A DNA stretch of 64,000 nt from Eledone cirrhosa. Taxonomy: Eukaryota. Position 1 is the first letter of the stretch, and each line of letters starts with the position of its first letter. A program made the position numbers and the translations under genes. The notes beneath the pieces are model-generated. The model did not search any database. It saw nothing but the letters and a program-made list of their open reading frames with translations, and was not told the origin of the DNA. This document shows, in pieces, positions 6,501-62,398 of this stretch. The stretch spans positions 4,960,001 through 5,024,000 of the forward strand of contig OZ024760.1 of the NCBI GenBank assembly GCA_964016885.1. The letters are read 5' to 3'.

Positions 6501-9500
6501 TCAGTGCCAGATGGTAAAAAGTATGAAGAATGTCTTGTAGAGGTTGTAGCAAAGCATTCCTTACCTATTGCATTCCAGACTCTACCTGTTGAAAATGGAT
6601 ACATCTGCTCTATACAAATCCAAAACGAGGTTTACAAAAGCAGCGGTGAGTCAGTCTTGTTTTTTTTATTTTTACAACTTCTCAAAAACAATGGTTTTCT
6701 TTTTTTGTTCATTTATACAGATCTACTTCCTCAATGATATATATATATATATATATGAAGGGCTTATGCCTGAAACATCGTCCCCTACCCCCACTCTCAA
6801 GCGTGAACCTAATACCAACAATTTGTACTGCACTCTTCGTTATTGTTTTTGTTTTCTGTTTTAACTTTTATATATATATATATATATATATATATATCTG
6901 ACTATCTCCTCAATTTATGTTCTGATGAAGGACTAGTGTCCGAAACGTTGACTCTTTTCCTACTATATCAAGCGTAAAACTAATAATATATTTCATTGTA
7001 CTATCGTTTGTTTTGTTTCTGTTTGCCTCATGCATACATATATATATATATATATATATATATATATATATATATATATATATATATATATGCTAGCGTG
7101 GAAGAACGGATGTAAAACGGTGATGATGATGATATATATATAGTATTTTCCGTAGTGTTATAATATGAATATTACACACAGTAGATGGACAGCTCACGTA
7201 GGGTTTGCTCGACGGTTCCAGTTGTAGTTTCAAAAGTAATCCGGAGAAAATAGAAGGATTTAAATGGATACAGTTCAGTAAAAGGAATTTATTGACACGT
7301 GTTTCAATAACAGTTATATAACCTGAAAACAGCTGCTATCTACAAAGTATTAATTATGCAGACACTCAATATTTCAATGTTATTTTCAACTATCATTTCA
7401 TCAGAATAATCTCATTGAGAACTTGTTTTGGTTTTTATAGAGAATATTAAGAGGGAGGAGTGAAGTTAGAAGAATCCACTCCCTTAACTATTCTTCTAAC
7501 TTCACTCCTCCCTCTTAATATTCTCTATAAAAACCGAACAAGTTCTCAATGAGATTATTCTGATGAAATGATAGTTGAAAATAACATTTTTAACATAATT
7601 AATACTTTGTAGATAGCAGCTGTTTTCAGGTTATATAACTGTTATTGAAACACGTGCCAATAAATTCCTTTTACTGAACTGTATCCATTTAAATCCTTCT
7701 ATATATATATATATATATATATAATTATTTATTAAAATAACAGATTAAAACATCGATTCTTTGCTTAAACTTTAATCTGTTATTTTAATAAATATTTGCT
7801 CTATGGTTTTTATATATATTTATATATCTTTTATCCTTATTGAGCCCTCTTTGGATTTTAGTCTTCACATTTATTATTATTATAAACATATGTGTATATG
7901 TATATATATATTATAATTTAACTTTTCCCTAATTATTCCAGCCTTCTTTACCAGTGAACAAGAAGCGCTATACTCTGCAGCGAAGAAAGCTTGTAACGAA
8001 CTTGGTCTTGATCCGTGTAAGTGATTTTATACCTTTGTAAAACTGTCTGTAGGGCTGAAGAAAACTTATAGAAAGTTGTCTGTATGTATATATATATATA
8101 TATATATATATATATAAGGAGGTGGCAAAAAGTTTTAGATAGTGATTTAAGCTCAGAACTTTTCAGTATCCTCCCCTTTATGTGTGTGTGTGTGTATATA
8201 TATATATATATATATATATATATATATATATATATATATATTCTTATACTTTGGAAGGGTAAAACACGAAGAACATCAGAGACGAGCTTACATATTGAAG
8301 CATATCTGAGGATCTTTCGATTCCAGAGTCAGGTTCGATCAATAATAGATTGTTCCTCGAGCTGATCGACAATGAAACACATGTAATATGTTATGATGCA
8401 ACACTGAATCTTTGTTCCTTTATTCTTATACTATATATATATATATATATATATAAATGAAAATAGAGAAAAAAAAATATATATATTATATATATATATA
8501 TATAAAGGGTAAAGACCCCTTTCAGTCATGAATGACCATGGGATTTGCACCTAGAAAGTTCCCCTCTGAGGCACAAGTCCAGGCAAAGTTGTTTGTGGAA
8601 GACCAGTAGTTGCCCATGCATACCAGTCTCCTCTCTCCACGTCACTGATGTTGTCCAAGGGAAAGGCAATGGCTGATACAGCTTGGCTCCAGTGATGTCA
8701 CAACTCATTTCTATGCATTTAATGAACTGGAGCAACGTGAAATAAAGTGTCTTGCTCAAGAATACAGGGCATATATATATATATATATATATATATATAT
8801 GTGCGCAAGATCAGTAGCCATACTTCAGTACTGGGTTGGGCAATGTAGACCATCCAGCCCAGGGAAAGCAGATGTTTTACTTATACAAAACTGTTTCTAG
8901 CTCAGTTTGTACAGCTGGATGCTCTTCCTAACGCCAACCACATTTGCAGTGTTGACGATGTGGGTGCTTTTTATCATGGCACCAAAATGACCAACTGAGA
9001 GGTTGGACTGGGTAACTTTTTCATTGTTATCAGCACGACCACCTTCATTGTTTTTACATCCACTTTTCCATGCTGGCATGGTTTGGACAGGATGTTTAGA
9101 GACAATATTTTATAGTTGGATACCCTCCTTGATGCCAATGTAGGAATATGGTGTTTCTATTCTAAAGAAAACAGGATAAACACGGCATATATGAGGGTCA
9201 GCTATAAATTTCATAGGCTGAAATATTCAAGTTTCATTGAATGACCAAATGAGGCTTATTTTTCAACATAGTCTCCGGAAAGAAACAATGCAGTTATTAA
9301 GAAGAGTTGAAATTAATGCATGCAAGATGTCACAGCTCTAGCATCACTTCTTCATAGTCAACCTATGATCAAGATACTCTCATGGAATGACCAAATGAGG
9401 TTTATTTTTCAACGTAATCTCTGGAAAGAAACAATGCAGTTATTAATAAGAAGAGTTGAAATTAATGCATGCAAGATTCCACACCTCTAGCGTCACTCCT

Positions 9501-12500
9501 TCATAGTCAGCCCACCCTTGTATATGCATATAAACCTTGGAATTTCCAAGGGCTCAGCAAATTACCATTGTTGTTCTCATTATCATTGTAATCTTCATGT
9601 CCGATATGGAATATTAATGGCAGCAAACAAATTCTTTACAGATAAAATGGATGATCCTGTAGGAGTTGATGAACATGAACTGAAGAAAAGAGTCCAGCAA
9701 GTGAGTTGGGAATCTTTCTAGATCTTTTTGTTTTAACCCTTTAGTATTTACATTACTCTATGTTTACTATTGTATTTATGTGGCAAAGGCTTTATCTGAT
9801 ATAATTAGCTGACATAATATTGAATCTAAGAGATTTTGATGTTATTTATTTTGAGCACAATGCCTAAATGTTGGTATGAGTGGCCAGTTACAGCTAGTTT
9901 GAAAAGACAGGTGAGAGAATTCTGGCCAGGTATGGCCGGTTTAAATGCTACAAGGTTAAGTAATAACTTAGTCTATGAGTGTTCCTTTCTCTGACTTTTG
10001 TTCTTCTGTTTGTTGTTTAGTCCTAGGTTGACTTTGATAGAGCAGGGAAATATTTTACTCAAGAACACCACACACAATCCAGTCTAGAAATCGAACCCAC
10101 AACATTATGATTGGGTGTTCATATTATAACCCCGCAGAGGCAACCTCATATCATCTGGCCTCTGCTAAAGCTGGGCGTGAAAATCGGATTACCTTCTGAA
10201 CACGCCCAGGCCTACCACCCCATGTACGTCCAAAACTACGTGCTGCAGCTTCCTTGAATCGGAACTCAGCACAAGATGAAAGTTTCAGTCTGCGTGATGA
10301 TGGGCAGATCTGGAGGTTTGTCAAGGCTGGTGAAACGTGGAAGAGAGATACCAGCTGGTCTGAGTGTGATCTACCCACAATAACTGGCAATGTAAAAACT
10401 GCTACAACTCTGGGAAACTAAACCAGAACAACCTGCCACCCTCTACACACCATCATAAACTGCGAGCAGGGTACAAATTGATGTCCTTAAATGCTCGCAG
10501 TTTATGCAACAAGATACATCTGTTCGAATCCTACGTCAGAAGCATCGACCCTGACTTCATCACAGTCACGGAAACATGGGCACATTCCTTACTCTGTGAT
10601 GGGGTTTTCACCATTACTGGGTACAACCTTTTCTGCAAGGACCGCATTAACCGCCGTGGTGGTGGTGTGATGGTCTACGTTCGTTCAAACTTTTCGGTAA
10701 TTCCTTGCGTTGATTTGAACGAATCACAGGAAGAAGTTTTTTTCTGTGACATACGTATGACCATGTCAACACTTCTGCTTGGTGTTGTTTATCGCCCCCC
10801 AAACTACCATCAGGACACACAGCTTTGCGATATCCTCAGAGTTGCTGCCAAGAAAACAGCCACTTATGTGTTTATTGCAGGTGACTTCAATCATCCTGAG
10901 ATCGATTGGGAAACCTTTCGTTGGCCACAGGGTGCAAACGATTTCCTTGAACTAGTGCTGGACTCAAACTGGTCACAAGTAGTCACCTCTCCAACAAGAG
11001 GTGACAACACTTTGGACCTGATCTTCACCACTACTCCTGAAGTGGTTATCAGTTGTACTACTGAGGAACCTCTAGGCGACTCTGATCATGCTATGATCAT
11101 TGCCAATCTGGCACTTGAGGGCAGCAACAAAAACCAGGGCCATCTCCAATCTGCTTGCTTTGATTGGAAGAGGGCGGATTGGAACTTGTACTGCACTGAG
11201 CTACAGCGCCCAAACTGGCATGAGATGTATAACTCTGGAGATGTGAACTCTATACTCCAGAGCATCCTGGACTCAATATGGATAGCGTGTGCAGCATCAG
11301 TGCCACGGAAGCGGAAAAATAACCACCCCAAAAGTGCAATCTGGGAAACTTCAGCGGTCCGACTTGCCAGGAAAGAACGTCGGAACGCTGAACGGGAATA
11401 TAAACTGCATAGATCAGATGCCAACAGAAAAAAGCGGAATAAATCTTCTAACCATCTCAAGCAAGTGACAAAGAAGGCAGTGCTTGAATTTGAACAGTGC
11501 ATCGCAACCAATCCTGACAGTAAGGTGTTCTGGAAATATGTTCATTCAAAGCAGAGACCTCACTCTCCAGTTGGTCCTCTTCGCAATCCCCACACAAGCC
11601 AGATCACTGACGATCCCAAGGAATGCGCAGAACTCTTGCTGAGTGCTATGCAAGTATTTTTACTGTTGAAAACCAGAATGTACCATCTCCACCATCTCTA
11701 ACATCAAATTCCATAACAACTATGGAATTTACACCTGCAATGTTGCGACGTCACCTTAAGAATAAGCGCAACTATGCCTCCCCTGGTCTTGATGGTGTGA
11801 CATACCTGCTTCTCAAACGTGGCGGGGATTTCCTTTTGCGCCAGCTTTCTTTTTTCTTTCAATACTGTCTCAGCAATGGTGCTACTCCGGAGCAGTGGAA
11901 AACTGCCAGTGTCATTTCCCTGTTCAAAAAGGGCAACCGCATGTCACCTGTCAACTATCGTCCAGTCAGTCTTACTAGCTGTATGGCCAAACTGATGGAA
12001 TCCTGTGTCAGAGAAACACTTTGGAACTTCTGGAGCTCTCACAGCCTCATCCGGCCCTCACAGTTTGGATTTATCCCTAACTCCAGCTGCTGTGATCAGC
12101 TTATCGAGTTCCTTGAGGACATCACCCGGATCACTGACAGCGGCTCATGGGTGGATGTTGTTTACCTTGACATTGCTAAGGCTTTTAATTCTGTGCCACA
12201 CAAAAGACTTATGGCAAAACTCTCTGCAATGGGTGTGAGGGATGATCTTTTCGACTGGCTGAAATCCTTCATTCTCAGCCGAAAGGAAGTAGTCACGGTT
12301 CTAGGACAGCATTCTTCACCATATGAGATGTCATCTGGTGTACCACAGGGATCTGTTCTTGGTCCTCTTTTGTTTGTGGCATATATTAATGACATAGATG
12401 CCAACTTACAGAATGCCACGGTACTAAAATATGCAGATGACATCAAGCTGTACCTTGAAATCAAAAGGACTGATCCTGAAATTTACAACTCTTTCCTACA

Positions 12501-62257: not shown

Positions 62258-62398
62258 GAGAAGAAATTAAAAGATGGTTAAAAAGATGGTTTTTATTATA
62301 CGCATTTCAAAAACAAATATCGTCCCTGGATGATATTTGTTTTTGAAATGCGCATAATAAAATCATGGAACTTTTTTAGCCATCTTTTAATTTCTTCT
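62258..62398. repeat. Inverted repeat
   Basis: agaagaaattaaaagatgg...ccatcttttaatttcttct. Confidence 0.85.

Follow-up and report, generated by a model that had tools for sequence, protein, structure and literature searches.

Foldbacks in and beyond a TDRD7-like gene of Eledone cirrhosa, most likely truncated head-to-head 3' ends of Penelope-like elements

Introduction

Head-to-head inverted pseudo-long terminal repeats (pLTRs) of Penelope-like elements (PLEs), with a tail on one of the two copies, have already been described (PMC3846280). The present analysis concerns seven foldbacks of comparable appearance (H1-H7) in a stretch of 64,000 nucleotides (nt) of Eledone cirrhosa DNA (NCBI GenBank assembly GCA_964016885.1, contig OZ024760.1, positions 4,960,001 to 5,024,000, forward strand), which is referred to below as the window, is numbered from its first letter, and contains the greater part of a TDRD7-like gene (+ strand).

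Self-priming, which is also proposed below, was inferred by Arkhipova in 2013, but on an antisense template (PMC3846280). Metazoan PLEs are known to carry minimal type I hammerhead ribozymes, among them a U3-A8 variant, and also dual motifs that lie on opposite strands, separated by 100-700 bp (PMC4209133). The Hydra clade of PLEs with a C-terminal endonuclease (EN+) is reported to be biased towards (TA)n and has an Octopus member, Hydra-1_Obim of Octopus bimaculoides (PMC8557442). PLE proteins were found to cut AT-rich DNA and to use two internal start sites for complementary DNA (cDNA), which delimit the tail, the hammerhead not being needed for insertion in vitro (PMC11167929). In Octopus vulgaris, PLEs account for 6.83% of the genome and are assigned to 190 families (PMC13282606).

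The hairpins of the window are most likely heavily 5'-truncated, head-to-head 3' ends (pLTRs) of several Penelope-like families, a reading that is held with considerable confidence. The tailed foldbacks probably belong to the Hydra clade, and each foldback was likely made once at its own TA-rich site and not copied as a hairpin.

Foldbacks, tails and target sites

A sequence-only reading of the window had named six foldbacks (H1-H6), all of which were confirmed in position, with folding z-scores of -9.9 to -52 against dinucleotide shuffles; a seventh (H7) had been overlooked. H1 (7250..7702) is made up of arms 7250-7475 and 7490-7702 around a 14-nt loop, its right arm ending in (TA)12. H2 lies at about 24140-24476, H3 at 33163..33401, H4 at 34923-35059 (34860..35059 with its tail), H6 at 57991-58103 (57915..58103 with its tail), and H5 at about 62258-62408 (62258..62491 with its tail). 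H7 (7726-7794, + strand; 7726..7885 with its tail) shows a 3-nt microhomology at its centre, and the loop is contained in the tailed arm. The helices of H1-H4 are predicted to be uninterrupted over 18-107 bp. The arms are arranged head-to-head in every foldback, the ribozyme strand being directed from the centre to the outside. No second copy of any of the six named foldbacks was found within the window. H7 is 91% identical over 137 nt to an unfolded copy at 63338-63502, so that one family occurs both folded and unfolded in the window.

A tail is present on one arm only in five of the six named foldbacks and in H7, and is absent from H2. In each of H1, H3, H4, H5, and H6, one of the arms ends at a TA run, and the other goes on for a further 63-107 nt before such a run is reached. 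Each tail starts with a bulged stem-loop, 2-7 nt beyond the point at which the other arm stops, of the form R-CTC, 3-5 bp, loop, partner strand, 2-nt bulge, GAG-Y, RCT. The tail of H1 (7143..7249, - strand, 107 nt) has its stem-loop from 7247, with 6 of 7 pairs and a long loop, and ends at a TA run; that of H3 (33402..33494, + strand, 93 nt) has a stem-loop at 33407-33435 and is followed by (TA)16. The remaining tails are located at 34860-34922 in H4 (- strand, stem-loop from 34922), at 62408-62491 in H5 (+ strand, stem-loop 62408-62435), and at 57915-57990 in H6 (- strand, stem-loop from 57984); the stem-loop of the H7 tail starts at 7798 (+ strand). In five of the six named foldbacks the motif lies no further than 7 nt from a single arm end (5 of 12 arm ends) and never at both ends, and the same was seen in H7. 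The stem-loop descriptor gave 11 matches in the whole window, and the full-score motif occurred three times, compared with a null of 0.035.

The stem-loops were compared in anchored registers. Among 16 instances the outer pair is A-U in six and G-C in eight, and the inner stem varies and is mostly paired, which is partly built in by the descriptor. The hexamer that follows the bulge reads, by family, AGTGCT, its reverse complement AGCACT, or one of the palindromes AGTACT and AGCGCT, forms that suggest a two-fold symmetric element overlapping the stem.

The proposal that several hairpins abut (TA)n tracts held for the tailed foldbacks: in all six of these the short-arm end lies no more than 3 nt from a TA run of at least four units, compared with 6% of window positions. 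Only short-arm ends were counted, because tail ends are defined by the TA run and their inclusion would be circular. The proposal did not hold for H2, which has no TA run near either end. This target preference is common to Neptune and Naiad and is hence not diagnostic of Hydra.

Five copies in the window are not folded back. Two of them, both tail-less, are located at 8242..8426 (+ strand), between two TA tracts, and at 33980..34213 (- strand). The other three (all - strand) carry a tail: 48790..48960 (stem-loop from 48848) ends at a TA-rich array, 58113..58277 (stem-loop from 58184) ends at the TA run adjoining H6, and 63338..63502, the sibling of H7 (stem-loop from 63424), is followed by a TA tract. 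The copy at 8242-8426 is 77% like the 48848 element. As a rough sum, PLE-type inserts cover about 4% of the window.

Hammerhead motifs

Hammerhead-like cores had been ascribed to most of the hairpins. Complete type I hammerheads with a palindromic stem III were found in two of the six (H2 and H3), damaged ones in two (H1 and H4), and at most a 3' half in two (H5 and H6), the cores of which had been misread. Both arms of H3 are complete (33289-33351, + strand; 33213-33275, - strand). The right arm of H2 carries a complete minimal hammerhead (24347-24386, + strand) with the core TTGATAA, and its left arm has no hammerhead core; TTGATAA is the published U3-A8 covariant of Schistosoma PLEs and not the result of decay. 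Both CUGANGA and U3-A8 cores were allowed in the minimal-hammerhead descriptor, as descriptors without U3-A8 overlook H2. Three sites were obtained (both arms of H3 and the right arm of H2), compared with a null mean of 0.013 (300 shuffles), and a looser descriptor added the solo site at 34077.

In the left arm of H1 (about 7345-7410, - strand) both core boxes and a 4-bp stem II are retained, stems I and III being imperfect; the right arm has lost GAAA. The left arm of H4 (34949-34989, - strand) has the core, stem II with a U.U closure, and a stem III, and owing to a cut at C3 it lacks the 5' strand of stem I. The CTGgATGA of H5 that had been taken for a core is the centre of the hairpin, and each arm keeps only the hammerhead 3' half, namely GAAA, the palindromic stem III, and the 3' strand of stem I. 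A hammerhead 3' half is possibly present in H6, and CTGATGAG is found on the strand opposite to it. The hammerhead 3' half is common to H3, H5, and the solo copy at 34077, and the tail stem-loop to five of the six hairpins, so that their description as unrelated was overstated.

The solo copy at 8242-8426 contains a hammerhead at 8300-8391, the structure of which was read by eye, with a 6-bp stem I, a long insert in stem II, and a damaged stem II base. In the copy at 33980-34213 the hammerhead (34022-34083) has a mismatch at the first stem II pair; that of the 48848 element is decayed, and that of the H7 sibling is cut at C3.

A check with covariance models, which the sequence-only reading had recommended, was carried out with Rfam and with a model built here from six Hydra-type hammerheads of other species. 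L082 and L084 (misaligned) and L039 (not independent), three of the loci described below, were left out of this model. Its E-values are rough. Seven matches were obtained, headed by both arms of H3 (E 0.025), H4 (0.074), and a new site at 63454-63502 (0.074). Matches of Rfam microRNA (miRNA) models on the hairpins were rejected as generic hairpin and microsatellite matches below gathering scores.

The H3 family in sequencing reads

H3 alone was tested in sequencing reads: four of the 15 runs listed for it were used in alignments at 80% likeness. None of the listed runs was an RNA dataset, which is uninformative about expression or editing. Contig depth in this survey does not represent copy number. 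The arm and tail of H3 proved to be a multi-copy repeat, matched by 3002 contigs in one run (X1) and 3978 reads in another (X13). At 33276, where the family copy forming the right arm of H3 is truncated, one common upstream sequence stands in place of the foldback in 405 restriction-site-associated DNA (RAD) reads (agreement 0.89); this continuation was also seen in 21 contigs of X1, in three of X4 (same organism), and in one contig of another organism, and it is visible in the reads for 30 nt. At 33287, 223 reads depart into related upstream sequence. The family has two 3' ends, which correspond to the two ends of the H3 tail, one at 33393-33396, where 407 and 201 reads end against diverse flanks, and one at 33485, where 352 reads end and TA follows. 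Further strand-switch (inversion) joints were seen elsewhere than at the centre of H3. From the shared upstream continuation, the two read ends, and the joints elsewhere it follows that H3 represents a single copy, truncated and inverted, of an element that is longer and has two 3' ends. Truncation was seen in H3, by the reads, and in H7, by its unfolded sibling.

The short sequence GGTATGTC is common to three different upstream continuations of the H3 family, shortly before the hammerhead, and looks like a splice donor. The leaders of PLEs are described as holding an intron beside the hammerhead (PMC4209133). The left flank of H3 (32967-33155) is a multi-copy repeat as well and terminates at a TA tract.

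The hairpins had been thought to form a distinct class of non-autonomous, ribozyme-bearing foldback retroelements, which would move as hairpins. Of the roughly 12 such inserts in the window, seven are indeed foldbacks, no open reading frame (ORF) is attached to them, and other foldback joints of the H3 family were seen in the reads. Most H3-family reads, however, run upstream unfolded, the joints are at differing positions, H7 has an unfolded sibling, a complete ribozyme is absent from four of the six named hairpins, and the arms are asymmetric. The proposed class is therefore not supported and is considered improbable.

Loci with Penelope-type reading frames

A pattern in which the hammerhead 3' half of H3 and H5 was joined to the stem-loop retrieved 74 metagenome loci. 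One of them (L039) has a full hammerhead with a paired stem-loop, and it is also the sole one of the 74 that encodes a Hydra-type reverse transcriptase-endonuclease (RT-EN) end, about 35 nt upstream. Its protein shows the CxCX5C spacing described for the Hydra clade, which is further recognised by RWK and DKT motifs and by the absence of CCHH, and has 441 longer relatives at E<=1e-20; a comparison with Pfam gave no match, and one with viral contigs gave three candidates, none of them a relative. An exact 22-nt search of metagenome contigs with H3 found none.

Ten loci found by protein similarity (L075-L084) served as an independent test set. These Hydra-type loci are situated in assemblies filed as bacterial genomes and most likely represent contaminating animal host DNA. 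In six of the ten, a hammerhead is located 113-218 nt behind the ORF match; of the remainder, L076 has a hammerhead recognised by eye, L077 and L078 are cut off too soon, and in L084 the end of the ORF is missing. The stem-loop is found 79-106 nt beyond the hammerhead in three of the six; the other three end before reaching it. In L075 and L080, two stem-loops lead up to the ATG that begins the following tandem ORF; L082 continues into a TA tract; L077/L078 form a head-to-head pair; and L079, L081, and L083 are tail-less solo copies. The full-score stem-loop motif occurs five times in the ten loci, compared with a null of 0.02. L084 contains in addition, at 2350-2533 (- strand) and opposite a Hydra-type ORF fragment, a further element, whose hammerhead is a different one and is followed by a TA tract and by the same stem-loop. 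In the published Hydra consensuses the stem-loop motif was recognised by eye in four of six. Short-motif searches of the supplement of PMC8557442 found none of the window sequences there.

The order of ORF, hammerhead, and stem-loop at 3' ends in the DNA of other animals supports a Penelope-type pLTR reading of the window inserts, so that the sequence-only reading was right to connect the hairpins with Penelope-like pLTRs and their inverted pairs, a connection that gained support both here and from the H3 reads. The order hammerhead, stem-loop, which was found in the window and in the protein-found loci, is a feature of the present work and not a published criterion. The same order behind PLE ORFs also bears on the idea that the inserts are DNA transposons resembling miniature inverted-repeat transposable elements (MITEs), inserted at TA and containing hammerhead-like text by accident. 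Long inverted repeats with TA flanks would suit such transposons; the motif order, one-sided tails, variable centres, and complete hammerheads far above the null do not. A MITE or foldback DNA transposon with fixed termini was rejected in H3, the only case tested, on account of the one-sided tail and the variable 5' extent and joints. The idea is largely refuted for H3 and, for the inserts in general, is hardly credible.

Proposed mechanism

The following course of events is proposed. On the tandem transcript of the element, its RT-endonuclease would bind the bulged stem-loop, which follows the hammerhead at a distance of 66-157 nt; the protein would nick a (TA)n tract, and cDNA would be started at the far end of the tail or, in tail-less copies, just before the stem-loop. 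Early termination of the tailed copy, as observed in H3 and H7, would leave a cDNA 3' end that could fold back on 0-3 nt of microhomology and copy itself. The second arm is seen to stop 2-7 nt before the stem-loop, where it meets TA; the stem-loop may be the cause, if the second strand was halted at the protein-bound structure and joined to the target there. In this respect the boundary stem-loop can be likened to the template-boundary element of telomerase. That the stem-loop is a clade-wide cis signal of Hydra-type PLEs, from corals to octopods, which serves as the binding site of the telomerase-like RT and fixes both the tail-less start and the second-strand stop, is put forward tentatively. 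On this view the foldbacks would document, in genomic form, how the second strand is made during PLE insertion, which is still unexplained.

Fold-back copying, given a PLE origin, is rated at about even chances. It is preferred over a scheme with the same PLE origin and a different mechanism, in which each of the two nicked target strands primes a cDNA of its own. One of these would start at the end of the tail and the other immediately ahead of the stem-loop, and their truncated ends would be united through microhomology. The PLE protein of the anole, a predicted dimer, cleaves and extends both DNA strands and uses two start sites bounding the tail (PMC11167929), all of which would suit two primers. 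So would the tail-less solo copies (34077, 8242-8426, L079, L081, and L083), the existence of which implies that the inner start site is used alone. However, a free choice of start sites predicts half of the pairs to be symmetric, and all six tailed foldbacks are asymmetric; moreover, the tailed arm is the longer one in both of the resolvable cases (H3 and H7). It is these two observations that favour fold-back copying. Two-primer synthesis keeps a minority share if a PLE origin is granted and is rather unlikely overall. A genome-wide count of which arm is longer would separate the two mechanisms.

Several observations weigh against the interpretation given here. No Penelope-type ORF was found in the window or touching any hairpin by peptide-motif, tblastn, and profile searches, and the clade assignment consequently rests on non-coding architecture. 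The Rfam hammerhead models gave no match (among the best 150 of 167 rows in one scan and every row in two others), and the scores of the model built here are weak (E 0.025-0.074). A two-sequence covariance model of the stem-loop detected H4 (E 0.037) and H5 (1.3) and none of the other copies in the window; the descriptor used for the stem-loop was originally derived from H3, H4, and H5, which makes the pair counts partly circular. Two of the six Hydra consensuses, Amil-1 and Obim-1, show no clear motif in their published form. The read evidence concerns H3 alone, and RAD data sample few loci. The tails exceed the published lengths. With regard to fold-back copying, the H3 junction is compatible with a blunt join or with a 2-nt match with slip, and the loop of H1 resembles the tail-less arm or a templated patch, which is not expected from fold-back copying off the tailed strand. 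H2, finally, has neither the tail motif nor a TA run; it may belong to another clade, or it could be a symmetric product of the tail-less start.

Host gene and neighbouring repeats

Exon matches to an Octopus vulgaris protein place the TDRD7-like gene at 507-49739 (coding exons 507..49742, + strand); its last coding exon is 58% identical to that protein. H1, H7, H2, H3, and H4 are intronic, and H6 and H5 lie 8 and 13 kb beyond the stop codon. The statement that the hairpins are placed in this pre-mRNA is thus correct for H1-H4 and fails for H5 and H6. Long double-stranded RNA (dsRNA) from the hairpins in the pre-mRNA is a prediction only. It is weakened as an idea because two of the six hairpins are outside the coding span and because a pair of inverted tRNA-like short interspersed elements (SINEs) at 33500-33853 and 34273-34625 (354 bp, 94%), which shares its intron with H3 and H4, is predicted to form a duplex exceeding all six in length. 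Like this larger duplex (33500-34625), the hairpins may be edited.

In the pre-mRNA the antisense arm would be transcribed first, and forcing of the hammerhead fold within the foldback is then calculated to cost 93 kcal/mol in H3 and 34 kcal/mol in H2, compared with 5.5 and 4.0 kcal/mol in the arm alone. The paired arms are predicted to lock the sense-strand ribozymes shut, which would make the inserts probably inert passengers of the host pre-mRNA. An unpaired sense-strand hammerhead is present at 8300-8391, but its stem II is damaged. Retention of the hairpins by selection, as ADAR or Dicer substrates regulating the TDRD7-like transcript, would be in line with the intronic position of H1-H4 and with their predicted uninterrupted helices. 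It is, however, highly unlikely: H5 and H6 are outside the coding span, the insert density of the window (a rough figure) fits the genome-wide PLE load of O. vulgaris (PMC13282606), the larger SINE duplex is in the same intron, and editing alone would not show selection.

Two adjacent Tudor-domain exons of the gene are doubled in the order A, A', B, B' (35140-35326, 37322-37480, 37846-37986, and 38768-38866, + strand; 85% and 82% DNA identity), and the O. vulgaris protein has one copy of each. The doubled exons are possibly mutually exclusive. Two nearly full copies of long interspersed elements (LINEs) with endonuclease and RT frames, each split into two frames, are present at 1995-5042 (- strand) and 10370-13242 (+ strand), the former with a PHD finger within the RT-containing frame. 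Long tandem arrays are located at 20056-21607 (32-bp unit, adjoining a SINE), 47789-48792 (37-bp TA-rich unit), and 58743-60043 (27-bp unit). Further short foldbacks, in which neither a hammerhead nor a tail motif was recognised, were noted at 1-86, 18350-18395, 42730-42805, and 58367-58414; that at 1-86 is cut by the window start and has a TA tract nearby. The inverted repeats 139-403, 21598-21975, 25040-25531, 29847-30184, and 33500-34625 were set aside as inverted pairs of dispersed multi-copy repeats, of a kind other than H1-H7.

Comparison with known systems

The insertion footprint, truncated inverted PLE ends, is of a published kind, described between 2013 and 2021, and the main finding is an ordinary one, PLEs filling several percent of octopus genomes and leaving such inverted ends. 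Novelty is confined to a small, conserved stem-loop that marks the tail boundary, a modest and testable detail. Literature searches and the main text of PMC8557442 yielded no description of it in Hydra, subscription papers, Repbase notes, and the supplementary figures of PMC11167929 being outside their scope. It offers a short non-coding marker by which ORF-less PLE remnants can be recognised and classified; such remnants are easily taken for MITEs or miRNA hairpins, and strong spurious miRNA-model scores were obtained here.

The inverted, 5'-truncated pLTR pairs of EN+ PLEs (PMC3846280; PMC8557442) are like the window copies in their head-to-head arms, one-sided tail, 5' truncation, and AT/TA-rich targets. 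The window copies differ in that they are bare ends without an ORF, and their tails measure 63-107 nt, compared with the published 30-40 bp. With the Hydra clade (PMC8557442) they share (TA)n targets, a hammerhead near the 3' end, and a bulged stem-loop behind it, and H4 shows the extra U after A9 and the U before GAAA that Hydra hammerheads often have. They depart from that clade in lacking an ORF, and the outer pair of the stem-loop is mostly A-U in them and G-C in the others. The hammerheads of metazoan PLEs (PMC4209133) resemble those of the window in the palindromic stem III, the short stem I, and, for H2, the U3-A8 variant; two complete motifs occur in H3 only.

In PAc, the Poseidon element of Anolis (PMC11167929), a stem-loop is likewise found behind the hammerhead, and two 3' ends bound the tail. 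The PAc loop is AC-rich, and the PAc site lies inside the ORF, whereas the stem-loop of the Hydra-type loci L075 and L080 is placed in the leader before the ATG, often twice. The non-LTR retrozymes of animals (bioRxiv 10.64898/2026.07.22.740005) are, like the window inserts, non-coding, PLE-derived, and equipped with a type I hammerhead. They form head-to-tail tandem arrays, of which none was found among the 116 tandem repeat rows of the window; the inserts described here are instead head-to-head pairs, with inverted arms, or solo copies.

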